A DNA stretch of 42,197 bases from Escherichia phage altidsur. Under the pieces are notes generated by a model, which made no database searches, was not told the origin of the DNA, and saw nothing but the letters and a program-made list of their open reading frames with translations. The position numbers and the translations under genes were made by a program. Positions within the stretch are counted from its first letter, which is position 1. Each line of letters starts with the position of its first letter. The DNA is taken from the sequence record MN850568.1; one strand, given 5' to 3'. Shown one piece after another: positions 6,091 to 31,519 of the stretch.

Positions 6091-7850
6091 TGGATTTACA
6101 ACGCCGCATGGTGATGGCAGGAATCGTTCGCGCCCACTACGAGAACAACTTCCCGCTGTTCCTGCATGACTACTTCGCATGGCTGGGCTTTGACCTCACT
6201 GAAATGCAGCTCGACATTGGCCGCTACATGGCCGACAGGACGCTCAAGAACAAGTGCGTCATGGCGCAGCGTGGTGAGGCTAAGTCCACCATCGGTATTG
6301 CCCGTGCTCTATACGAATTTGTGCAGATGCCAAACGCCACTGTGCTGCTGGTATCCGGTTCGGATGACTATGCTGGCACGCTCTCGCACGCTATTGTGTC
6401 TGCCATCATGCAATGGGACAGACTCGAATGGCTGCGCCCGGAGACTCGCGCTGGCGCACGTACGTCATACACTGACGGCTTCGACGTGCATCACGCGTTC
6501 CGTATCCCTGACAAACAGCCCTCTGTAAAAGCGGTCGGTATCTTCGGCCAGTTGCAGGGGAACCACGTATCGCTGTTGATTGCCGATGACGTGGAGACTA
6601 CCAGTAACGGTAGCTCTCCAGCCAACCGCGCCCGTATCAACACCCTGACCAAAGAGTTCGCGGCTATCGCCAACGATGGTGCAGAGATTCTGTACCTCGG
6701 CACTCCGCAGACTCAGGACTCCATCTATAACACGCTCCCGCAGCGTGGCTTCGACGTTCGTATCTGGCCCGGTCGTTTCCCTACGCCGGAAGAAGAAGAA
6801 CGGTACGGCGGCTGTCTTGCCCCGTGGATTAAGCAGAAGATGGAAGGCCACCCGGAACTGCGTACTGGCTACGGTATCCTTGGGAACCGTGGTGCTCAGA
6901 CTGACCCTCAGCGTTATTCTGAGGAGAAGCAGCTCCAGAACGAACGAGATTATCAGCAGGCAGGCTTCCAGTTGCAGTTCATGCTGGACACGTCGCTGTC
7001 TGATGCGCTCAAACAAACGTTACATCTCAGAGACTTAATCTTCTTCCACGGCTCTACGCAGTCTGCGCCGGAGGTTCTGCATTGGTCTAACCACCCGCGC
7101 CATGCCGCCGAGCTGCCACTGGATTTCCCACTTGCTCGCGCTCAGCTATTCTTGGCTGCTGACTTCTCGGACACGTATGTACCATTCGAAAATACCTCGG
7201 CGTTTCTTGACCCTGCTGGTGGTGGGTCGGACGAATCAGTTATCATCGCCACAGCTTCTGTCGGCCCGTTTATCCACGTCATTGGTATGCACGTCTACCA
7301 CGGCGGCCAGACGGAGGAGAACATCAAGGCGGCGGTAGAGTGGCTGTCTGAGGTCGGCGTTAAGCGGCTGGTCATTGAGGATAACATGGGCCACGGAACC
7401 GTGACCAACATGTACCGAGGTGAGATTAAGCGGCAGGGCTTGACCATTGGCTGCGAAGGCGTGTACTCGTCCGGCCAGAAAGAGGTGCGTATCATCAACC
7501 GCCTCGGCCCAATCATGCAGCGCCACCGTGTCGTTGTGCATTGGTGCGTTGTTGAAGAAGACCTGCGGCTGTGCCGGGGGATGAATAACGGTGGTCGCGA
7601 GTTCAGCCTGTTCTGGCAGCTCCAGAACCTGACACAAGACCGTCAATCAATCCCTCATGATGACCGTATTGAAACCCTATCTGCTGCCGTGTACCTGCAC
7701 GCTGAGGTGCTACAGCAGGACGAACATGAAGAAGCTGCCAAGCGCGAGACTGCTGCTGCACGAGAGTTCCTTGCCAACCCCATGGGTTACGACGACTCGA
7801 AGTGGCGCAGCCATAAGCCTGTGCGCGGCGTGCGACGGAGACTACGTTAA
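6090..7850 (+). CDS. Terminase large subunit (DNA maturase B), 586 aa
   Basis: Same length as T7 gp19 (586 aa); ATPase-like segment (LLVSGSDD...LLIADDVETT) followed by a nuclease-like C-terminal half; position after the tail fiber and small terminase. Confidence 0.85.
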   Translation: MDLQRRMVMAGIVRAHYENNFPLFLHDYFAWLGFDLTEMQLDIGRYMADRTLKNKCVMAQRGEAKSTIGIARALYEFVQMPNATVLLVSGSDDYAGTLSHAIVSAIMQWDRLEWLRPETRAGARTSYTDGFDVHHAFRIPDKQPSVKAVGIFGQLQGNHVSLLIADDVETTSNGSSPANRARINTLTKEFAAIANDGAEILYLGTPQTQDSIYNTLPQRGFDVRIWPGRFPTPEEEERYGGCLAPWIKQKMEGHPELRTGYGILGNRGAQTDPQRYSEEKQLQNERDYQQAGFQLQFMLDTSLSDALKQTLHLRDLIFFHGSTQSAPEVLHWSNHPRHAAELPLDFPLARAQLFLAADFSDTYVPFENTSAFLDPAGGGSDESVIIATASVGPFIHVIGMHVYHGGQTEENIKAAVEWLSEVGVKRLVIEDNMGHGTVTNMYRGEIKRQGLTIGCEGVYSSGQKEVRIINRLGPIMQRHRVVVHWCVVEEDLRLCRGMNNGGREFSLFWQLQNLTQDRQSIPHDDRIETLSAAVYLHAEVLQQDEHEEAAKRETAAAREFLANPMGYDDSKWRSHKPVRGVRRRLR

Positions 7851-8734: not shown

Positions 8735-9223
8735 ATGAAACTGTCTCGGCTAATGGCCGGGGCAGTCCTCTCATTGTCACTGACATTGACGGGCTGCTCC
8801 GCAACTAGCGCACTGTCTGCTGTAACTTCGGCTGTCTCTCCCAACAAGCCGGAACTCACGGCGCAAGTCGGTGCAGAGAATACGAAGCAAGGTATCGGTG
8901 TGACTGCGAAACAGTCCGACGAAACAAAGGTCGGTGACGTATCAGGTAACGCGAAAGTGGATACCGCTAAGCAGGGTTCGAATGGCACTTCCGTCAAGGA
9001 CGTTACAGGAGGCTCTGTAAACGCTTCTAAGCAGGGGTCGCAAATGACCCAAGGAAACGTACAGGCTCGCACAGTAATCGTCTCACAGAGCGACCCACGC
9101 AGTCTCCTGTGGGCTTTCGGCATGGGCCTTACATGTATCCTTGGTTTAGTCATGTGGTTTGTACCATCTCCGTGGAAAAGGAAAGTGAAAGATGACGGAA
9201 GCAAAGAAGGAGCCAACTCCTAA
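8735..9223 (+). CDS. Lipoprotein with C-terminal transmembrane helix; unimolecular spanin (u-spanin) candidate
   Basis: N-terminal signal peptide ending in a lipobox (LTLTGC), Thr/Ser/Gly/Lys-rich extended middle, C-terminal hydrophobic helix (LLWAFGMGLTCILGLVMWFVP) followed by a charged tail; located directly upstream of the endolysin. Confidence 0.55.
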   Translation: MKLSRLMAGAVLSLSLTLTGCSATSALSAVTSAVSPNKPELTAQVGAENTKQGIGVTAKQSDETKVGDVSGNAKVDTAKQGSNGTSVKDVTGGSVNASKQGSQMTQGNVQARTVIVSQSDPRSLLWAFGMGLTCILGLVMWFVPSPWKRKVKDDGSKEGANS

Positions 9224-9575
9224 CATCCACTCGCGTATGGGTGCAGTGGAGGCTCGTATGCAATCCGTAGAACTTCGACTCGACAAGCACGAGGTACAAA
9301 TCGCCACCCTTGAAAAAGGCGACGCTGCAATGCTGGCCAAGCTCGCGGAGAACGATACCCGCTGGCAGACCGTTCAACAGCAGCTCCTTGTGGTTGAGCA
9401 AATTCAGGACATTCAGAAGACTATGAGCCATATCGGTAAGCTGTTTACGGCGGCGGCTCACGCTGTCAAATGGTGTCTCTTAACCGCATCCCTGTGTAGC
9501 GGTATCTACTTAGCGATTAAGGCTGGCGACCTCACGGCTCTCCAGTCCTTTATCACAACGATTATGGGGATGTAA
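9192..9575 (+). CDS. Lysis-cassette membrane protein with N-terminal coiled coil and single C-terminal TM helix (holin/antiholin/spanin-like candidate)
   Basis: ORF between the lipoprotein and the endolysin; heptad-like N-terminus, one hydrophobic helix (WCLLTASLCSGIYLAI); TAATG coupling to the endolysin start. An alternative start at 9237 would avoid overlap with the upstream gene. Confidence 0.5.
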   Translation: MTEAKKEPTPNIHSRMGAVEARMQSVELRLDKHEVQIATLEKGDAAMLAKLAENDTRWQTVQQQLLVVEQIQDIQKTMSHIGKLFTAAAHAVKWCLLTASLCSGIYLAIKAGDLTALQSFITTIMGM

Positions 9576-10111
9576 TGACTAACTTTGAAATCTGTATGCG
9601 GTTCACCGGGCTGGCAGAAGGCGGTTACGCCAACCTGCCCGGAGACACCGGAGGGGAAACGAATCATGGAATTAGTGACGCTCGTGATGGAAAGCTGGAT
9701 GGTAGAGCTTGCGGTGTCCCTACTGGGCTTGGCGGCACTATTTGTGTGCCTATCCGCAACCTCACCAAAGCGCAAGCCGAAGCAATCTATCGACGGGACT
9801 ACTACAGCCCCATCCGAGGTGACGAGCTTCACCCTGCGATTGCATGTGCCGTGTTCGACTACGGCGTTAACTCAGGTGTCTCCCGTGCGGCGAAAGCTCT
9901 ACAGCGGGTATGCGGCGTTGCACAAGACGGGGTTATTGGCCCTGCTACCGTGGCAGCAGCCAAACGTCTGGAACCTCACTCCGCAGCAGCAGCCATCTGT
10001 GACCTTCGTATTGCGTTCCTAAAGGCTTCTACAGCCCCGACAATCGTTCGGTATAGGGATGCCTTGGTAGCTCGTGCAAAACGCTGTAGCGACTACTGTG
10101 CGACGCTGTAG
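9575..10111 (+). CDS. Endolysin, GH108-type muramidase with C-terminal peptidoglycan-binding-like region, 178 aa
   Basis: N-terminal motif LAEGGYANLPGDTGGETNHGIS and downstream IYRRDYY match the GH108 signature (EGG...DPGG.T..GI...YxxDYW) read by eye; no N-terminal TM/SAR segment. Confidence 0.8.
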   Translation: MTNFEICMRFTGLAEGGYANLPGDTGGETNHGISDARDGKLDGRACGVPTGLGGTICVPIRNLTKAQAEAIYRRDYYSPIRGDELHPAIACAVFDYGVNSGVSRAAKALQRVCGVAQDGVIGPATVAAAKRLEPHSAAAAICDLRIAFLKASTAPTIVRYRDALVARAKRCSDYCATL

Positions 10112-10320
10112 GGGCTATCGAAAGCTGGAGCATTGAACAGGCCGTGGGGAGCAATACCCCCGGCTTGAAAATTGCATGTTTATAGTTGCCCCTCCCTCGA
10201 CCCAAATGACCGCGCGTACCCCCATGACGTGTGCGCGGATTAGCCTCGCGACGTGCGCGATATTGCCTCGCGTGTGCTGCGCGGCGCGTCAAGAGGATTG
10301 CCTGCGTGCGGTATAGCTCG

Positions 10321-10710
10321 TGCGTGTCGCGTTTCACTATCGCCGCGCGGTGCTGTCCTGCTGGCTGGCTGTGTGCCTGCTGTGTGGGCTATCGGTGGCG
10401 GTGTGGTGCTGTCCTATTGGGGACGCTCTGCGCTGGCTGCGTGGTGCTGCTGGCTGCGCGTGGTCGGTCGGGTATCTGTCTCTTTTCGTCGTGGTGTGTG
10501 GTGCTGGTGTGTAGCGGTGTGCGGCGTGGTGCTGCCGTCCTGCTGTGTGGTGTGCTGGTCTACTGTCTGCGCCTGCCAGCTCTGCGCGTCATGCTCTGCT
10601 ACTGTCTCTTACTGTCCTACTGCCTTCACTGTCTGCCGTCTGTCAGTCCTACGGTCTGCCATCCGTCATCCGTTCGGCGCTCGCTTGTTTCGGCTGCGCC
10701 GCGCTCGCTC
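10321..10710. other. A-depleted (G/T/C-only) strand-asymmetric tract; candidate genome-terminus / terminal-repeat-associated region
   Basis: By manual count roughly twenty A residues in ~390 nt on the + strand. Because every stop codon contains A, all three + frames stay open, which produces the overlapping Cys/Arg-rich ORFs in the track. Sits between the last late gene and the early promoters. Confidence 0.6.
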
Positions 10711-10730
10711 TGCGTATCTAGCGATACTAT

Positions 10731-10752
10731 ATCACTATAGACACTTTCATAA
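10731..10752 (-). promoter_or_regulatory. Copy of the 22-bp phage promoter-like motif ATGAAAGTGTCTATAGTGATAT, inverted; + strand reads ATATCACTATAGACACTTTCAT
   Basis: Reverse complement is identical over 22 bp to 31211-31232; contains the CTATAG core reminiscent of the CACTATAG core of T7/SP6-type promoters. Confidence 0.45.
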
Positions 10753-10757
10753 TTATC

Positions 10758-10856
10758 TAATGATTACAGTAACTTATAACCTATCTGATAACGGTATTCT
10801 ATCCAGTGTTATGATTATCTAATCAAACTTTAATCCTAATGATTACAGTAACTTAT
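10758..10856. repeat. AT-rich direct repeats (20-bp TAATGATTACAGTAACTTAT at 10758-10777 and 10837-10856, plus duplicated ATTATCTAA)
   Basis: Exact 20-bp duplication 79 bp apart, read directly, immediately downstream of the A-depleted tract and the inverted promoter-like motif. Confidence 0.6.
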
Positions 10857-10877
10857 CACTTTTCTTGAAAATAATAC

Positions 10878-10907
10878 TTGCCAATCTGTTTTGGTTTATG
10901 CTGTAAT
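10878..10907 (+). promoter_or_regulatory. Host sigma70-type promoter candidate (TTGCCA-N18-TGTAAT)
   Basis: -35-like TTGCCA at 10878-10883 and the same TATGCTGTAAT -10 box as the next two promoters. Confidence 0.35.
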
Positions 10908-10984
10908 TCATCTCGCCGGACAACACAGCGTTAACGTGTTGGACGGTGTAGGACGGTAACACTGCTCTTTAACAATCTGGTGTG

Positions 10985-11013
10985 TTGACAAGGCAAGCTC
11001 ACTATGCTGTAAT
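10985..11013 (+). promoter_or_regulatory. Host sigma70-type early promoter (TTGACA-N17-TGTAAT)
   Basis: Perfect -35 TTGACA at 10985-10990, 17-nt spacer, TATGCTGTAAT box; one of three identically spaced copies upstream of the early region. Confidence 0.55.
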
Positions 11014-11121
11014 GCTTCCACGTCAGCCAGCAAGCTAAACAGTCATTGATAAAGACGTTAAAACACACGTAGGCAAGCTGGTACGGTTTAACTATCTCAG
11101 AACGGGCGCTGATTAAATCGG

Positions 11122-11150
11122 TTGACAGGATGAAATGAGTATGCTGTAAT
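11122..11150 (+). promoter_or_regulatory. Host sigma70-type early promoter (TTGACA-N17-TGTAAT)
   Basis: TTGACA at 11122-11127, 17-nt spacer, TATGCTGTAAT box at 11140-11150. Confidence 0.55.
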
Positions 11151-11201
11151 GCACACCAGATTGACAGGGCAGCAAGCCAGTCAGTCAGAAGTAAAAAGTA
11201 G

Positions 11202-11230
11202 TTGACACGCTGAATACGATGTGATGTAAT
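11202..11230 (+). promoter_or_regulatory. Host sigma70-type early promoter (TTGACA-N17-TGTAAT)
   Basis: TTGACA at 11202-11207, 17-nt spacer, GATGTAAT box at 11223-11230. Confidence 0.5.
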
Positions 11231-11687
11231 CAGCACCGAGTTGAAAGGTTGCAAAACAACCTGCTCTGAGTGAACGTAAACTGGCCACGTAGTGTCACGG
11301 TCTCATGGGTATCCGGCGCAGCTAGGAACTGGTGAGAGGCATCGCTGAAAAGCAACGGTATTGCAACAATGCTAACGCCGTAGGGGTAGTGCCTGATGCA
11401 AGGGAACGGAGAAGCGCGATAGACACAGCGCAGTATCAGTAAAATCCCAAACGTCTTATAAGGCGCGGAGTGAAGCGGGTAGGTAGGCAAGCTGGTAACG
11501 GTGAGCCGGACTGCTGGAGGACTCCTGAGAGTGGATGCAGACAATATCCACGGCGCGAAATGGGCGGGGCGATTTTTCAGGGTAGTGAATCCGACAAGCC
11601 AATCAATGCCACTTAGTGCAACATGTACGGCGCGTCACAATGGGTTCACTATCCACCTGAAAATAGCCAACAACTGGAGAAATAACT

Positions 11688-12755: not shown

Positions 12756-12778
12756 CAGGCCATTCACTGAGTGGCCTG
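12756..12778 (+). promoter_or_regulatory. Intergenic RNA hairpin (CAGGCC-loop-GGCCTG); candidate RNase III/processing or attenuation site
   Basis: 6-bp perfect inverted repeat with 11-nt loop between two early genes. Confidence 0.35.
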
Positions 12779-13869: not shown

Positions 13870-13893
13870 ACTGCCTCGTTGCGACGGGGCAGT
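13870..13893 (+). promoter_or_regulatory. Intergenic RNA hairpin (ACTGCCTCG-TTGCGA-CGGGGCAGT) of the repeated module
   Basis: 9-bp stem with one G-U wobble and the same TTGCGA loop as 13461-13484, followed by GGCAATCATGCC box. Confidence 0.4.
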
Positions 13894-17149: not shown

Positions 17150-17183
17150 TCATCTACTCATGCCTGTTATTATTTAGCAGGCA

Positions 17184-17205
17184 TTATGAAGGTGTCTATA
17201 TTGGC
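17184..17205 (+). promoter_or_regulatory. Phage promoter-like motif copy (TTATGAAGGTGTCTATATTGG), preceded by hairpin 17160-17184
   Basis: Matches the 22-bp motif at 31211-31232 in 17 of 20 core positions; perfect 7-bp stem ATGCCTG/CAGGCAT immediately upstream; precedes the gene at 17223. Confidence 0.4.
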
Positions 17206-17222
17206 CAACGTGAGGATGAAAT

Positions 17223-17426
17223 ATGTTCCGAGTTATATTGTTGTTCCTGTTCCTCGTTATTATTTGGGGAGCTTTATGGATGGCGCTGGCAGTGTTCGCA
17301 CTGATACCAGCCATCGGTGAGTCGGCTACTTCTTCGGTGGGTACGCTGCTCGGTATGCTGGTAGGCTGGGGCTTGATGCACGTAAGCCTGAGCGTAGGTC
17401 AGAGCCGGAGGTGGATTAGATGGTAA
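17223..17426 (+). CDS. Small membrane protein (two predicted TM helices), 67 aa
   Basis: Hydrophobic segments LLFLFLVIIWGALWMALAVFALI and LLGMLVGWGLMHV; downstream of a promoter-like motif. Confidence 0.5.
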   Translation: MFRVILLFLFLVIIWGALWMALAVFALIPAIGESATSSVGTLLGMLVGWGLMHVSLSVGQSRRWIRW

Positions 17427-17860
17427 AGCCTAAGTACAAAATCGGTGACGAGATTGTAGGTCACAACGACACTGGCACCCGGTCAGGTAAGCTGGGTATC
17501 GTCGCATGGGTTAACCCTGACCGCCGAGCATGGGAGCGCAGTGGCGAGACCCGCTACATCGTGAGCTGGATTGGTGAGCGGCTGAATGCACAGCCGGACA
17601 TCAGCCACTACAAGTCTGATTGGCTGGAGGATAATACCAGTCTGGTCAGCCGCAAGCCGGAAGACCGGGGCCGCTACATGTGCTTGGTCGAAGGTAGCAA
17701 TGCACCGCCGAAGGTTGAGCACATCACTGAACTGGATGCGCGGGAAGAAGCTGAGCGTTTGGCTGAGCGCAACGGAGGTACTGTCCGTGTGCTGCAAGTT
17801 GTAGCCAGCGTGAAGATGAAGAAGAAGATTCAGTACATACCAGAGTGGGATAACGAATGA
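17420..17860 (+). CDS. Hypothetical protein, 146 aa
   Basis: Translationally coupled ORF upstream of the primase. Confidence 0.55.
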   Translation: MVKPKYKIGDEIVGHNDTGTRSGKLGIVAWVNPDRRAWERSGETRYIVSWIGERLNAQPDISHYKSDWLEDNTSLVSRKPEDRGRYMCLVEGSNAPPKVEHITELDAREEAERLAERNGGTVRVLQVVASVKMKKKIQYIPEWDNE

Positions 17861-27211: not shown

Positions 27212-27680
27212 TGGTACGCTGGCCGATGGCCGCTGGCGTTTGCACCTGCTGCCTCCACCGGAGCGTCGGCACCTTGACGAAGCGTGGGCCGAGTTCAACT
27301 TGGCTGGCGCTGACGACCCTGCGTTTCAGGATACGATTGACATTGTGAACGCTCTGGCCCTCACGTATCGCATTGTCATCCTGACTGGACGCGGGGCCGT
27401 GGCCCGTGAAGTAACAGAGCAGTGGCTCGACGAAGCTGGCGTTGTTTACGACAAGCTAATCATGAGAGAGATTGGTGACTGCCGTAAGGACACAGAGATG
27501 AAGCTATCCGCTCTGGAGGATATTGGTATCGAGAACATCGTGTGTGCTTTCGATGACCTGCCGCACATCGTGGACTTCATGCGAAGCCTCGGCATCACAG
27601 TGTATGAAGTGACCCGGTACGAGGACAACCATGAGTACGTCCACGCCAATGCCAAATACGATGGAGACAAAGATGAGTAA
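27177..27680 (+). CDS. HAD-superfamily phosphatase (polynucleotide 3'-phosphatase-like), ~167 aa
   Basis: HAD motif I VVVDLDGTLAD near the N-terminus and a late acidic motif (FDDLPH); internal ATG of track ORF 27012..27680. Confidence 0.6.
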   Translation: MHMKDTVVVDLDGTLADGRWRLHLLPPPERRHLDEAWAEFNLAGADDPAFQDTIDIVNALALTYRIVILTGRGAVAREVTEQWLDEAGVVYDKLIMREIGDCRKDTEMKLSALEDIGIENIVCAFDDLPHIVDFMRSLGITVYEVTRYEDNHEYVHANAKYDGDKDE

Positions 27681-28257
27681 ACGTGGTGACAAGTTCTGTC
27701 TGGATATTAACCGCGACTACCAAAGCCCACGGCTCAACGCTATGCGGGACAACGGCATCATCCTGACGTACGATGAACCCTATGATGTACCTAATGACAG
27801 CAGGGATTATTACACCTACGTTTGGGACGGCAGGACGGAACATCTGGTACTGGAGCCTTATGAGGTACAGCCAGTCCAGACTGCGTTCATTGAGAACGAC
27901 CCATATGACCCGGCCTCTGATGTTGAGGTGGCCGTGGCCATTGGTCAGGGTGTTGGTGGGCCGGGCGGTATGAAGTTCGACGGCGGCAAACCGCGCATGG
28001 CCCTGCTGTTCGACGGTTGCCCGAATGCACTGGAGGCTGTAGCCAGCGTGCTAACCTTCGGTGCTCAGAAGTACGCAGCTCACTCGTGGCAGACCGTACC
28101 GGAAGGTGAGGAACGCTACAAGTCAGCGCTGCTTCGTCACCTGACCGCAGTGGGTAAGGGTGAGGAGACTGACCCGGAATCCAATCTGCACCATCTGGCG
28201 CACGCTGCTTGCAATGCGCTGTTCATTCTGGAACTTGCTTTAAGGAAAACGAAATGA
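27673..28257 (+). CDS. Conserved phage protein resembling dATP/dGTP pyrophosphohydrolase-type nucleotide hydrolase domains, ~194 aa
   Basis: Segment KFDGGKPRMALL...FGAQKYAAHSWQ...RYKSALLRHL...ESNLHHLAHAACNALFILE; family assignment from memory only. ATG overlaps the upstream stop (ATGAGTAA). Confidence 0.5.
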   Translation: MSKRGDKFCLDINRDYQSPRLNAMRDNGIILTYDEPYDVPNDSRDYYTYVWDGRTEHLVLEPYEVQPVQTAFIENDPYDPASDVEVAVAIGQGVGGPGGMKFDGGKPRMALLFDGCPNALEAVASVLTFGAQKYAAHSWQTVPEGEERYKSALLRHLTAVGKGEETDPESNLHHLAHAACNALFILELALRKTK

Positions 28258-28433
28258 GTGCTTTACTTTATGTGATTGCTTTGTTCTGGTTCGTGTACTT
28301 TACACTGGCCACCCTCAGCGCGTGCAAGTCTTATAACTTGACGCACTACCCGACACGGGCTGGCTCTGCTGGTTTCGTTGTGTGGGTACTGTTGGCTGTA
28401 CTGCCAACTTGGTTCATCTGCTATCTGGCGTAG
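28254..28433 (+). CDS. Small two-TM membrane protein (holin-like topology), 59 aa
   Basis: ATGA-coupled internal ATG of track ORF 28209..28433; hydrophobic helices LLYVIALFWFVYFTLATL and FVVWVLLAVLPTWFICYLA. Confidence 0.5.
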   Translation: MSALLYVIALFWFVYFTLATLSACKSYNLTHYPTRAGSAGFVVWVLLAVLPTWFICYLA

Positions 28434-28441
28434 GGGATTGT

Positions 28442-28747
28442 ATGAGTCGTTATCAGAGAGCTGTCGATGACACAGCGGTAGACAAGAATGTGTGCGGTGC
28501 GTGCCATGGGAGTGGCACCTACCGGGGCATGTTGATTGGTGGGCAGGTAGTCCTGATGGATTGCGAAGCCTGCGGCGGTACGGGTACGAATAACAGCACG
28601 CTTCAACACGAGGTGCTGGCAGACTTAGGGCAGCGCAACCAAGCGCAGCCCGGTTATGATAAGCCTACCTATGGCGTTGGTATTGTCGAAGAATTTCAAG
28701 ACGATGCGGCTGAGGTTGAGCGGTTAGCTGGACAAATTAAGGAGTAG
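28442..28747 (+). CDS. Zinc-finger protein (DnaJ-like CxxCxGxG repeats), 101 aa
   Basis: CGACHGSGTY and CEACGGTGT motifs; internal ATG of track ORF 28382..28747 with GGGG RBS. Confidence 0.5.
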   Translation: MSRYQRAVDDTAVDKNVCGACHGSGTYRGMLIGGQVVLMDCEACGGTGTNNSTLQHEVLADLGQRNQAQPGYDKPTYGVGIVEEFQDDAAEVERLAGQIKE

Positions 28748-28749
28748 TT

Positions 28750-31182
28750 GTGGACTTACTTGCTGAGCAGATTCGACTTGAAGAAGAAGCACGAGCCAGA
28801 CACCGCGAGGGCTGGCTGGACAATATCAAAGAAGCCATGGCTAGTGGCCGGGCCGGGTCGGTGCCGTTGCTCCAGCGTATGATGGTAGAGGCGTATCCTC
28901 TTGTCGAAGCTGCGATGCAAGAAACCCTGAACGAAACGACCCGTGGGTACGGTGCGCAGTACCGGACGTACATGCGTGAGATTGGCACCAAGGCGTGTGC
29001 CTCTCTTGCACTGAGCATGGCGGTGTCCGGTGCTGCGTCGGAGCAGGCGGTGCTGAGTCTGCTTAAGAGTATGGGTAAAGCGCTGATGGCTGAGGTGGTG
29101 TATCTCCGGGCGAAGCAGACCGGGCCACAGCAGGCAGCGTACATGGAGCGCGTGAAGCAGGACGTTAAGAAGTCCCGGTCGAAGTCAGCCAACCACGTCT
29201 ACAACAAAGCGCGTGCGTCGGCGGCGAACGTTGGGGTCGAGATTGATGTGCTGCCGCAGCGTGCTCTGATTACCATTGGCAAGCTGATGATGAAATGCGT
29301 GGAGCCAACTGGGTTGGTGGCTACGATTCGCGTCGGCGGCAACCAACGTCAGCGCGGTACGGCACACTTCGCACTGCATGAGGATGTGCTGGCTACGATG
29401 AACGACTGGCTGGACATGCCGCGTGCTGATGGCATGTGCTGCCCACCGTTGATTATCCCACCGAAGCAGATTGCACCGAACGGTCGCAGCGGTATGTGGC
29501 ACTCGGATGGGCAGGCGGCGATGTACCGGGTAATGAGTCGCATGAACCACAAAGGGTATCGTGCATTGAACGTTGACCCGACCCCTGTTATAGAGCCGTG
29601 TATGATGCTCAGCAGCGTTCCGTACCGAATTAACCCAATGGTACTGGAGTTCCTGAGAACGAACCGTACAGGCGTTATGGGGCTGCCTGTGCCGCCTCGT
29701 GAGCCTAAGCTCCCATTCACCATCCCGGCTGGTGTCAGCTTCGCGCAGTACATCAGCAAGTTCCCACCAGAGATGCAGCAGCAGATGGATGCCGAGGCTC
29801 ATGAGTACAAGGTTAAGACTCGCTTGTATTACAATGAGTTGCGTAAGTTCACGTCGCAGATGCTGGCGCTGAATGGTGCAGTCAAAGAGGCAGAGCGCTA
29901 TGCGCATTATGACCGGGTATACCTCCCGACCTACGCTGATACACGGGGCCGAATTTATTATTCTTCGACCCTTAACCCTCAGTCCATCGACGCAGTGCGA
30001 GCGCTGCTCGAACTTGCTGAACCAGTGGCTCTCGGAAGTGAGGGGTTATTCTGGCTCAAGGTACATGTTGCGAATTGCTTCGGCTACGACGCGACAGACT
30101 TCGAAGACCGGGCGGCGTGGACGGACAAGACACTCCCCCGACTACGTGAGGCGTGCCGTCTTCCAGAGGCATTTGATTCGTTCTGGTCAGAGGCCGATAG
30201 CCCTATCAGCGCGTGGGCTGCATCTGTTGAACTCATTCGCGCTATCGACTCAGGAAATCCTGCGGCTTATCCCTGCCGAGTGGTTACACAATGGGACGCT
30301 ACCTGTTCAGGATTACAGCACCTCAGTGCGATGTTACGAGATGAGGTTGGAGGTGCTGCTGTCAATCTTATCGACAGCGTGGGAAGAAAAGCAGACATAT
30401 ATCTCAAGACGGCAGCAGCGGCGATGCAGGCTCTTGAAGAAAGTGAGGCAGCAGCGCCGACGCAAATGGGTACGTGGCTTGTTAGCATCGGCATCGTTCG
30501 GGCTATGGCCAAGAAGCCAGTGATGACCTACGTGTACGGGGCAACCCGGCATGGTATGGTTGATTACTACTGCCTGTATCTGCGTGAGAACCGGGTCAAG
30601 CTGCCGGACGGCAAGAGCCTGCTGGAGTGTGCGCAGTTCATCGCAGAGTTCATGTGGAACGCTATCCCTCGCGTTGTGCCGAAGGCGGCTGAGCTGATGG
30701 CATGGTTGCAGGCTATCGCAGTTGAGGCGGCAGCCAACGGCGAGTACGTGGAAATCATCGCACCGTCAGGGTTGCGGGTGGTTAACCTGTACCAAGCCAG
30801 TAAGGAGACGATGCTCAACAACATCAACCTCATGGGTATCCACAGCATTAAGCTGCGTGAGTATCTGGACAAGCCGGACAGCCGGAAGTGTGCTGCTGCG
30901 ATTGCTCCGAATTTCGTACACGCTATGGATGCCAGCCACATGATGAAGGTGCTGTGGGAGATGTGGAACAACGGGGTGTACATGGTATCCATCCATGACT
31001 CGTTCGGTGTTGCGGCGGCACATGCTGGTCTGCTGCATAAGGTCATTCGTGAAAAGTTCGTACAGATGTATGAGCAACATGACCCAATTCAACAGCTTGC
31101 GGTAAGATACAATGCTGTTGCACCAGAACGGGGTAATCTGGACATCCAGCTTGTGAAACAATCAAGCAAGTTTTTCTGCTAA
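28750..31182 (+). CDS. DNA-directed RNA polymerase, T7-like single-subunit, 810 aa
   Basis: Motif WDATCSGLQHLSAMLRD (compare T7 DGSCSGIQHFSAMLRD) and IHDSFG catalytic motif; GTG start; located directly upstream of the structural module. Confidence 0.9.
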   Translation: MDLLAEQIRLEEEARARHREGWLDNIKEAMASGRAGSVPLLQRMMVEAYPLVEAAMQETLNETTRGYGAQYRTYMREIGTKACASLALSMAVSGAASEQAVLSLLKSMGKALMAEVVYLRAKQTGPQQAAYMERVKQDVKKSRSKSANHVYNKARASAANVGVEIDVLPQRALITIGKLMMKCVEPTGLVATIRVGGNQRQRGTAHFALHEDVLATMNDWLDMPRADGMCCPPLIIPPKQIAPNGRSGMWHSDGQAAMYRVMSRMNHKGYRALNVDPTPVIEPCMMLSSVPYRINPMVLEFLRTNRTGVMGLPVPPREPKLPFTIPAGVSFAQYISKFPPEMQQQMDAEAHEYKVKTRLYYNELRKFTSQMLALNGAVKEAERYAHYDRVYLPTYADTRGRIYYSSTLNPQSIDAVRALLELAEPVALGSEGLFWLKVHVANCFGYDATDFEDRAAWTDKTLPRLREACRLPEAFDSFWSEADSPISAWAASVELIRAIDSGNPAAYPCRVVTQWDATCSGLQHLSAMLRDEVGGAAVNLIDSVGRKADIYLKTAAAAMQALEESEAAAPTQMGTWLVSIGIVRAMAKKPVMTYVYGATRHGMVDYYCLYLRENRVKLPDGKSLLECAQFIAEFMWNAIPRVVPKAAELMAWLQAIAVEAAANGEYVEIIAPSGLRVVNLYQASKETMLNNINLMGIHSIKLREYLDKPDSRKCAAAIAPNFVHAMDASHMMKVLWEMWNNGVYMVSIHDSFGVAAAHAGLLHKVIREKFVQMYEQHDPIQQLAVRYNAVAPERGNLDIQLVKQSSKFFC

Positions 31183-31207: not shown

Positions 31208-31233
31208 TATATGAAAGTGTCTATAGTGATATG
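31208..31233 (+). promoter_or_regulatory. 22-bp phage promoter-like motif ATGAAAGTGTCTATAGTGATAT, flanked by direct repeats of TAGTGATATGTATCA
   Basis: Identical over 22 bp to the reverse complement of 10731-10752; partial copies at 17184-17205 and 31498-31519; lies in the gap between the RNA polymerase gene and the structural genes. Confidence 0.5.
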
Positions 31234-31497: not shown

Positions 31498-31519
31498 TTA
31501 TGAAAGTGTCTACTATGGG
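31498..31519 (+). promoter_or_regulatory. Phage promoter-like motif copy (TTATGAAAGTGTCTACTATGGG)
   Basis: First 13 core positions identical to the 31211-31232 motif; overlaps the first ATG of the next ORF. Confidence 0.35.

Follow-up and report, generated by a model that had tools for sequence, protein, structure and literature searches.

Two small predicted hairpin membrane proteins of Escherichia phage altidsur, encoded away from the lysis cassette and probably distinct from its holin

The genome of Escherichia phage altidsur (MN850568.1), a circularly permuted and complete genome of a phiKMV-type podophage of the genus Bonnellvirus (Autographiviridae/Autoscriptoviridae), contains two very small open reading frames (ORFs), named here ORF-A and ORF-B and encoding 67 and 59 amino acids (aa), respectively. 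An earlier note on the same DNA had described both as two-helix membrane proteins located outside the lysis cassette and had proposed that either could be the missing holin or antiholin, or alternatively a superinfection-exclusion or host-takeover protein. Both ORFs were analysed within the whole stretch of 42,197 nucleotides, referred to below as the window. The genes of the window are all carried by the plus strand. Those for internal virion proteins and tailspike come first, followed by terminase and, at 8.7-10.1 kb, by the lysis cassette. Beyond a non-coding end region lie small early genes (11.5-17.1 kb) and the genes of DNA metabolism (17.2-28.7 kb), and after these the RNA polymerase gene and the structural genes (Table 1). 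Around ORF-A and ORF-B, the sequence identity is 97.7-97.8% to Escherichia phage aldrigsur and 82-90% to other bonnellviruses; the published identity between altidsur and aldrigsur is 97.1%. Both genes do lie outside the lysis cassette, ORF-A approximately 7.1 kb and ORF-B approximately 18.1 kb downstream of the endolysin gene, in the block of replication and RNA polymerase genes. They are already present in GenBank records of related phages as hypothetical proteins, with neither a function nor a membrane nature recorded. Their membrane nature, expression context and module structure, as well as a ranking of the holin candidates of this phage, are new here.

The ORF-A protein is 100% identical to aldrigsur_28 (QHR68502.1), annotated as a hypothetical protein, and the stop codon of ORF-A lies in a 7-nt overlap (ATGGTAA) with the following gene, whose ATG is at position 17420. 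Residues 4-31 are very hydrophobic, with a 19-residue Kyte-Doolittle (KD) mean of 2.8 and a summed Hessa-scale dG of approximately -4.9, and constitute the most hydrophobic segment among the genes of the window. A weaker, glycine-rich stretch follows at residues 38-57 (KD of approximately 1.4-1.7, dG of +2.4 to +3.6), so the second transmembrane helix is marginal on hydrophobicity alone. AlphaFold2, run with the family alignment, predicted a helix-turn-helix hairpin made of residues 2-31 and 33-61 (pLDDT 90, pTM 0.68). The charged residues are R3 at the N-terminus, E33 in the loop and R62, R63 and R66 in a 9-residue C-terminal tail (GQSRRWIRW), and this pattern recurs in the family, where position 3 is R or K, the loop (GESATS, GEQLTS or GDSTTS) is acidic or neutral and the tail is basic/aromatic. 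According to the positive-inside rule, both ends of the protein would be located in the cytoplasm (N-in/C-in). The alignment of 14 homologues, with identities down to 39%, contains the invariant residues V4, L7, F8, W15, W19, P29, G32, T36, G40, G44, V47, G48, M52, G59, W64 and W67. Three of these form a glycine zipper in helix 2 (G40xxxG44xxxG48), which is also kept in the divergent metagenomic clusters P0012 and P0013. A dual start giving an N-terminally extended, holin-style product was considered and rejected: the upstream ATG at position 17186 sits within a 19-bp promoter motif described below, and neither in the window nor in most relatives is it in frame with ORF-A. The annotated start of the orthologous J8-65 gene (gp11) lies 12 codons upstream, at an ATG inside the promoter motif.

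The ATG of ORF-B overlaps the stop codon of the upstream gene (ATGA). The mechanical ORF opens further upstream, at a TTG at position 28209, but all homologues start at the ATG. The protein is 100% identical to aldrigsur_13 (QHR68487.1), also annotated as a hypothetical protein. Its two hydrophobic segments, residues 3-23 and 40-59, are both clear (KD 2.2; dG of -1.9 and -0.6), and the AlphaFold2 model obtained with the family alignment is again a helical hairpin, with helices at residues 2-30 and 36-58 (pLDDT 86). There is no C-terminal tail, since helix 2 extends to the C-terminus, and no glycine-zipper motif. C24, Y27 and H31 are invariant in the loop, as is P51 in helix 2. The loop carries a net positive charge in one allelic type and a net negative charge in the other, and the orientation of the protein is ambiguous for this reason. 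In terms of the topology check called for by the earlier note, two helices were predicted in each protein, with a marginal second helix in ORF-A and an ambiguous orientation of ORF-B. The same note had located ORF-B just upstream of the RNA polymerase gene. It is indeed nearby, but a gene for a 101-aa zinc-ribbon protein (28442-28747; CxxCxGxG; PHROG 6060, 'anti-termination protein Q-like') stands between them, directly before the RNA polymerase gene. The gene upstream of ORF-B (27631-28257) has a metagenomic homologue with the domain PF18909 (dGTP_diPhyd_N) and is named 'putative phosphodiesterase' in relatives.

ORF-A and ORF-B are protein-coding genes under purifying selection and not chance hydrophobic frames, because both have Shine-Dalgarno sites, start/stop overlaps with neighbouring genes, conserved starts and dN/dS ratios well below 1 at saturating dS. 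The codon comparisons covered 12 orthologues of ORF-A and 8 of ORF-B, with dS from 0.5 to above 2. Nei-Gojobori dN/dS ranged from 0.04 to 0.58 for ORF-A (mostly 0.1-0.35) and from 0.02 to 0.50 for ORF-B (mostly 0.06-0.3). The comparison of the window with J8-65 gave for ORF-A 29.5 synonymous (Sd) and 17.5 non-synonymous (Nd) differences, with a dS of 1.10 and a dN of 0.127, and that with Kc261 gave for ORF-B a dS of 1.02 and a dN of 0.077. It is very improbable that the two are non-functional, that is chance hydrophobic frames or decaying genes. Frameshifted copies do exist, ORF-B is missing from several genomes, and spurious hydrophobic ORFs occur elsewhere in the window, in the non-coding stretch at 10.2-10.8 kb and in off-frames. 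However, this explanation conflicts with the purifying selection at saturated dS, with the conservation of starts, ribosome-binding sites and translational coupling, with residues that are invariant across sequences only 39-50% identical, and with the synteny kept in divergent metagenomic relatives. The claim that both are small membrane-format proteins with two helices was thus upheld by hydropathy, by the predicted hairpins and by their coding status, and we regard them with high confidence as real membrane-type proteins.

Homologues of ORF-A were found in 14/14 bonnellvirus genomes read and in 19 phage records, at the same position, and homologues of ORF-B in 13 phage records, also at the same position. 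In LF82-23, J8-65 and Lidtsur, ORF-B is missing, and the gene that precedes it elsewhere directly adjoins the Q-like gene; no match to ORF-B was found in smaasur, from which it is probably absent as well. Neither gene is present in the related phage LIMEzero. Scans against Pfam, PHROGs, NCBIfam and PADLOC (E<=0.01-1) assigned no family to ORF-A or ORF-B, and a permissive Pfam scan (E<=10) of the 14 ORF-A homologues returned only noise-level matches to assorted transmembrane families. When both AlphaFold2 models were compared by Foldseek with the viral models of BFVD, each retrieved only its own family at E<=0.001. Similarly, word-indexed searches of 5.8 billion proteins yielded only bonnellvirus-like clusters for ORF-A and ORF-B, and an exhaustive hidden Markov model (HMM) profile search of 1.84 billion cluster representatives yielded only bonnellvirus-like sequences. 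Two long matches in the latter search were discarded as compositional artefacts, one of them (P0014) being a repeat protein. The metagenomic relatives, found on contigs of approximately 40 kb or shorter, keep the same synteny. ORF-A and ORF-B appear to be two unrelated, genus-restricted genes, encoding very small alpha-helical-hairpin proteins of the host inner membrane, and are examples of tiny phage membrane ORFans, a large and unexplored class.

Each of the two genes occurs in two divergent allelic types that are 45-50% identical, and the type found at one gene is independent of the type at the other and of the flanking genes. Between the window and glasur, dN was 0.48 for ORF-A, compared to 0.07 for the adjacent gene, which encodes a 146-aa protein, and 0.02 for the primase gene. 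Two disrupted copies were encountered. In forsur, ORF-A (L012, 501-668) has a +1 T insertion through which helix 2 and the tail are lost, and in megetsur, ORF-B (L007, 15898-16104) has lost 4 bp within a TGTC tandem repeat. The sequence downstream of both frameshifts is otherwise intact, and both phages are published as isolated plaque formers. ORF-B appears to be a dispensable accessory gene.

The 73-bp spacer 5' of ORF-A holds two conserved elements, a hairpin and a 19-bp motif, the latter with the sequence TATGAARGTGTCTATAKTG. Three exact copies of this motif are present in the window, compared to 0.01 expected, and two of the copies in the window sit at the positions of promoters annotated in LIMEzero, in which a 'putative phage specific promoter' is located at the equivalent place before the primase gene and a second one right after the RNA polymerase gene. 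In each relative, all copies of the motif share one lineage-specific variant (GTGTCT, GCTACT, GTGACT or GTAACTGT). The copies thus co-vary within a genome, as would be expected if a promoter and its polymerase evolve together. The copy proximal to ORF-A consistently ends with TATATTG and not with TATAGTG. The 19-bp motif is therefore best described as a candidate promoter of the phage RNA polymerase, whose variant 'middle' copy may drive ORF-A, the 146-aa gene, primase and helicase, and it offers a testable transcription map for the genus Bonnellvirus. The minus-strand copy points leftward, toward the genome end. The promoter-like motif that the earlier note had seen before ORF-A is thus borne out by the 19-bp element. 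A sigma-70 reading of the same region was rejected: the site at 17174-17202 matches at 9/12 positions, 3 such sites occur in the window compared to 5.1 expected in shuffles, which is chance level, and no conservation of its -35 region is seen in J8-65.

The hairpin next to the motif has a folding energy of -12 to -16 kcal/mol, and its stem varies across relatives in a compensatory manner (ATGCCTG/CAGGCAT, ATGCCAG/CTGGCAT, GTGGCAT/ATGCCAC and ATGGCAT/ATGCCAT). It is the positional equivalent of a 'putative factor-independent terminator' of LIMEzero (LIMEzero 7255-7284). The altidsur hairpin has no clear U-tract, and might terminate transcription, serve as a processing site or stabilise the transcript. 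Similar hairpins are present in other early intergenic gaps, for example at 12756-12778 and 13870-13893. A scan of the whole window against Rfam found no family.

The gene overlapped by ORF-A encodes a soluble protein of 146 aa, for which no Pfam match was found and a PDB sequence search gave only chance matches (E>0.1). The 7-nt overlap between the two genes is always kept, and both have the same distribution over the 19 records. The 146-aa gene, like ORF-A, is absent from LIMEzero, where the promoter leads straight into the primase gene. In the bonnellviruses the two genes are interposed between promoter and primase, and head a chain of overlapping genes that continues from the 146-aa gene into primase and helicase. 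Because of the translational coupling and the co-inheritance of the two genes, they are best read as a genus-specific two-gene module, with ORF-A as its putative membrane component. By analogy with p16.7 of phi29, such a module could anchor the replication machinery or the DNA of the phage at the inner membrane, and the position of the pair at the head of the primase and helicase chain, the predicted cytoplasmic location of both ORF-A termini and the strict co-inheritance of the pair would fit this function. We consider it unlikely, as LIMEzero has homologous primase and helicase genes and replicates without the module, an HNH gene splits the module from the primase gene in one metagenomic relative, the 146-aa protein contains no detectable DNA-binding or replication domain, and ORF-A is essentially devoid of a soluble domain.

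The lysis cassette has to be considered in order to evaluate the two proteins as holins. None of the bonnellvirus records read has an annotated holin, nor does LIMEzero, and none has been reported for Kc261; in terms of annotation, the description of the holin as missing was thus fair. The supplements of the spanin survey assign no holin to J8-65 either. The N-terminus of the GH108 endolysin has no hydrophobic, signal or signal-arrest-release (SAR) segment, and this enzyme therefore needs a canonical holin. Consistently with this, J8-65 and LIMEzero were singled out as phages lacking a pinholin/SAR system, and their unimolecular spanins (u-spanins) were assigned to the T1 gp11 family (Kongari et al.). 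Transmembrane-grade segments among the genes of the window are found only in the u-spanin, in a 127-aa protein encoded between u-spanin and endolysin, in ORF-A and in ORF-B, which narrows the holin candidates to these four membrane proteins, and the 127-aa protein was ranked first.

The 127-aa protein has a coiled-coil-like N-terminal region and a single transmembrane domain (TMD) at residues 91-109 (KD 1.58). A second possible start, the ATG at position 9258, is preceded by a strong Shine-Dalgarno sequence (GGAGG) and would give a protein of 105 aa. Conservation is 83-98% across all bonnellviruses and 53% in ORF54 of LIMEzero, and a weak, sub-threshold match to XhlA was obtained (E 0.049). 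In KP34-like and PhiM1-like phages, the published cassette order is u-spanin, predicted single-TMD holin and endolysin. The order of u-spanin, single-TMD protein and endolysin in the window is the same, and the altidsur u-spanin is likewise of the T1 gp11 type. However, the altidsur protein is larger (105-127 aa compared to approximately 83 aa) and has a long coiled-coil-like N-terminal region, the endolysin is a canonical GH108 enzyme and not a SAR endolysin, and the homologues of the 127-aa protein are nowhere annotated as holins. By analogy with these cassettes, the holin of altidsur is more probably the 127-aa protein than ORF-A or ORF-B.

Part of the features of holins are nevertheless displayed by the two small proteins. 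Both have the appropriate size and two hydrophobic helices each, and membrane insertion is predicted for both. The class II holins and pinholins, such as S21-68 of phage 21 and gp17.5 of T7, are likewise of approximately 60-70 aa, with two helices and an N-in/C-in topology, and ORF-A further resembles them in its basic C-terminal tail and in the glycine zipper of helix 2. In TMD2 of the S21 pinholin, a similar GxxxSxxxG motif has reportedly been described. Of the hydrophilic and highly charged C-terminal cytoplasmic domain of holins, ORF-A offers at most its 9-residue tail with three basic residues, and the tailless ORF-B has no counterpart. The differences from these holins include the lack of any sequence or profile similarity, the location of both genes away from the endolysin gene, and the apparent dispensability of both. 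Pinholins have a first helix of the SAR type, weakly hydrophobic and able to leave the membrane, for which helix 1 of ORF-A is far too hydrophobic, and the endolysin has no N-terminal SAR or signal sequence and hence not the form of a pinholin partner. Among the 14 ORF-A homologues, a single one gave a match to Holin_BlyA (E 0.021, in the Pfam scan at E<=10), beside matches of similar E-value to other transmembrane families, and this match is regarded as noise; neither protein matched a holin family in Pfam, PHROGs, NCBIfam or PADLOC. Neither is present in intact form wherever the endolysin/spanin cassette occurs, with the caveat that the frameshifts may be sequencing errors. LIMEzero in particular shares the cassette of u-spanin, 127-aa protein (ORF54) and GH108 endolysin, yet has no ORF-A.

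It is therefore rather unlikely that ORF-A is a true holin or co-holin, that is a class-II-type hole-former which would be made from the middle promoter and release the cytoplasmic GH108 endolysin at a programmed time, and for ORF-B such a role is less likely still. The size of ORF-A, its two helices, its N-in/C-in charge pattern and its basic tail, the invariant glycine zipper in helix 2, the presence of the gene in every bonnellvirus read, and the need of the endolysin for a holin in a genus in which none is annotated all speak for such a role of ORF-A. Against it, ORF-A is located 7 kb from the endolysin gene and in the transcription unit of the replication genes, has no family match beyond noise, is frameshifted in the plaque-forming phage forsur and is absent from LIMEzero in spite of the shared cassette. 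In addition, ORF-A undergoes non-synonymous change approximately 7-25x faster than its neighbours, whereas the 127-aa protein of the cassette is well conserved. Because of their distance from the endolysin gene, the lack of a holin family, their variable or disrupted presence and their absence from LIMEzero, probably neither ORF-A nor ORF-B is the essential holin.

The earlier note had also raised the possibility of an antiholin. ORF-A and/or ORF-B would in that case modulate the timing of lysis by binding the real holin in the membrane and delaying or tuning its triggering. Separately encoded antiholins are known from T4 (RI), P1 (LydB) and P2 (LysA), which favours this possibility, as do the small size and membrane nature of both proteins and their production before the late genes. 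Their dispensability suits a modulator better than a holin, and the glycine zipper might mediate heterotypic TMD-TMD binding. However, neither protein is similar to any known antiholin or linked to the cassette, and the assortment of the ORF-A and ORF-B allelic types is independent of the highly conserved 127-aa candidate holin, contrary to what tight co-evolution with it would predict. An antiholin or timing role thus appears improbable, and the attribution of a holin or antiholin function to the two genes found no support in their distance from the endolysin gene, in their lack of a holin family match, in their variable presence or in a cassette that has its own candidate.

T4 Imm-type superinfection-immunity proteins, which a virulent phage makes early in infection, are small inner-membrane proteins with two TMDs, and Imm blocks the entry of DNA from superinfecting phages. 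They are the closest functional analogues of ORF-A and ORF-B, by format only: the two proteins share with Imm the size class, the predicted two-TMD format, a pre-late expression context, an accessory status and fast evolution. No Pfam match links ORF-A or ORF-B to the Imm family, and ORF-A differs from Imm in being paired with a soluble partner. Nothing relevant was found in the literature on superinfection exclusion in Autographiviridae, and the toxic-protein screen of fHe-Kpn01 yielded no analogue. The explanation that we put first, with an even chance of being correct, is that ORF-A and ORF-B are not holins but accessory factors acting at the membrane, in a class that comprises host takeover, superinfection exclusion and conflict; the superinfection-exclusion or host-takeover role raised in the earlier note is compatible with the data. 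Their expression would accompany that of the DNA-metabolism genes and would precede the late lysis cassette or not depend on it, and both would insert into the inner membrane in the middle phase of infection. The glycine zipper of ORF-A might provide tight helix packing, either for self-association or for binding to another membrane protein, and its short cytoplasmic ends might be presented to the 146-aa partner. Strictly paired with this soluble partner, placed right after a candidate phage promoter and rapidly diversifying into allelic types, ORF-A is a tractable candidate for finding a new membrane-directed takeover or exclusion function.

Several points weigh against this explanation. The term accessory membrane factor denotes a class and not a demonstrated mechanism, and no homology assigns a function to either protein. 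The format of ORF-A, with its approximately 67 aa, two helices, N-in/C-in topology, basic tail and glycine zipper, resembles that of a class II holin, and phage lysis genes can be scattered, as in T4 and T7. The preferred holin candidate, the 127-aa protein, is itself atypical because of its long soluble N-terminal region, its uncharged C-terminus and the moderate hydrophobicity of its TMD, and no database match calls it a holin. The frameshifts in forsur and megetsur could be sequencing errors rather than recent mutations. Finally, the topologies were derived from simple scales and the positive-inside rule, and that of ORF-B is ambiguous. A more specific possibility, to which we give little weight, is that ORF-A is a glycine-zipper, channel-forming 'viroporin-like' protein switched on by the phage RNA polymerase at the early-to-middle transition, and that it constitutes a two-component membrane device together with its obligate cytoplasmic partner, the 146-aa protein. 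If so, it would represent a new superinfection-exclusion or membrane-conditioning system in Autographiviridae, or else the real bonnellvirus holin, encoded 7 kb from the endolysin gene and clocked by a middle promoter.

Table 1. Coordinates of ORF-A, ORF-B and associated features in the window
Feature	Position	Strand	Remarks
u-spanin (unimolecular spanin)	8735..9223	+	lipobox LTGC, C-terminal TMD; PHROG 1804, E 1.4e-36
127-aa protein	9192..9575	+	between u-spanin and endolysin; positional holin candidate
GH108 endolysin	9575..10111	+	PF05838, E 2.3e-22; start MTNFEICMRFTGLAEGGYANLPGD
19-bp motif, exact copy	10733..10751	-	non-coding stretch between endolysin and early genes
Hairpin, 10-bp stem	17160..17184	+	inverted repeat, directly abuts 19-bp motif
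19-bp motif, copy TATGAAGGTGTCTATATTG	17185..17203	+	candidate phage RNA polymerase (middle) promoter, before ORF-A
ORF-A Shine-Dalgarno sequence GAGGA	17212..17216	+	6 nt 5' of ATG
ORF-A	17223..17426	+	67 aa, ATG start, predicted two-helix protein
146-aa protein	17420..17860	+	soluble; phrog_28324 (unknown function)
ORF-B Shine-Dalgarno-like sequence AAGGA	28242..28246	+	7 nt 5' of ATG
ORF-B	28254..28433	+	59 aa, ATG start, predicted two-helix protein
RNA polymerase	28750..31182	+	
19-bp motif, exact copy	31210..31228	+	just after RNA polymerase gene, before structural genes
19-bp motif, 3-mismatch copy	31499..31517	+	

The endolysin gene of the cassette contains an embedded +1-frame ORF (9585-10022), which encodes a TMD followed by KRKPK and is open in all bonnellviruses. 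It was rejected as a hidden holin gene: conserved H/Y-G codons of the endolysin impose its ATG, and the dS of the endolysin gene is low both inside (0.21-0.31) and outside (0.21-0.40) the overlap, so that there is no evidence of selection on the embedded frame. The overall dS of the endolysin gene, 0.22-0.34, is below that of its cassette neighbours. Downstream of the endolysin gene, a long non-coding stretch (10112-11680) reaches to the first early genes and contains Cys- and Val-rich spurious ORFs at 10231-10822. This stretch corresponds to the genome-end/terminal-repeat region of J8-65, whose direct terminal repeat (DTR) is 259 bp long.

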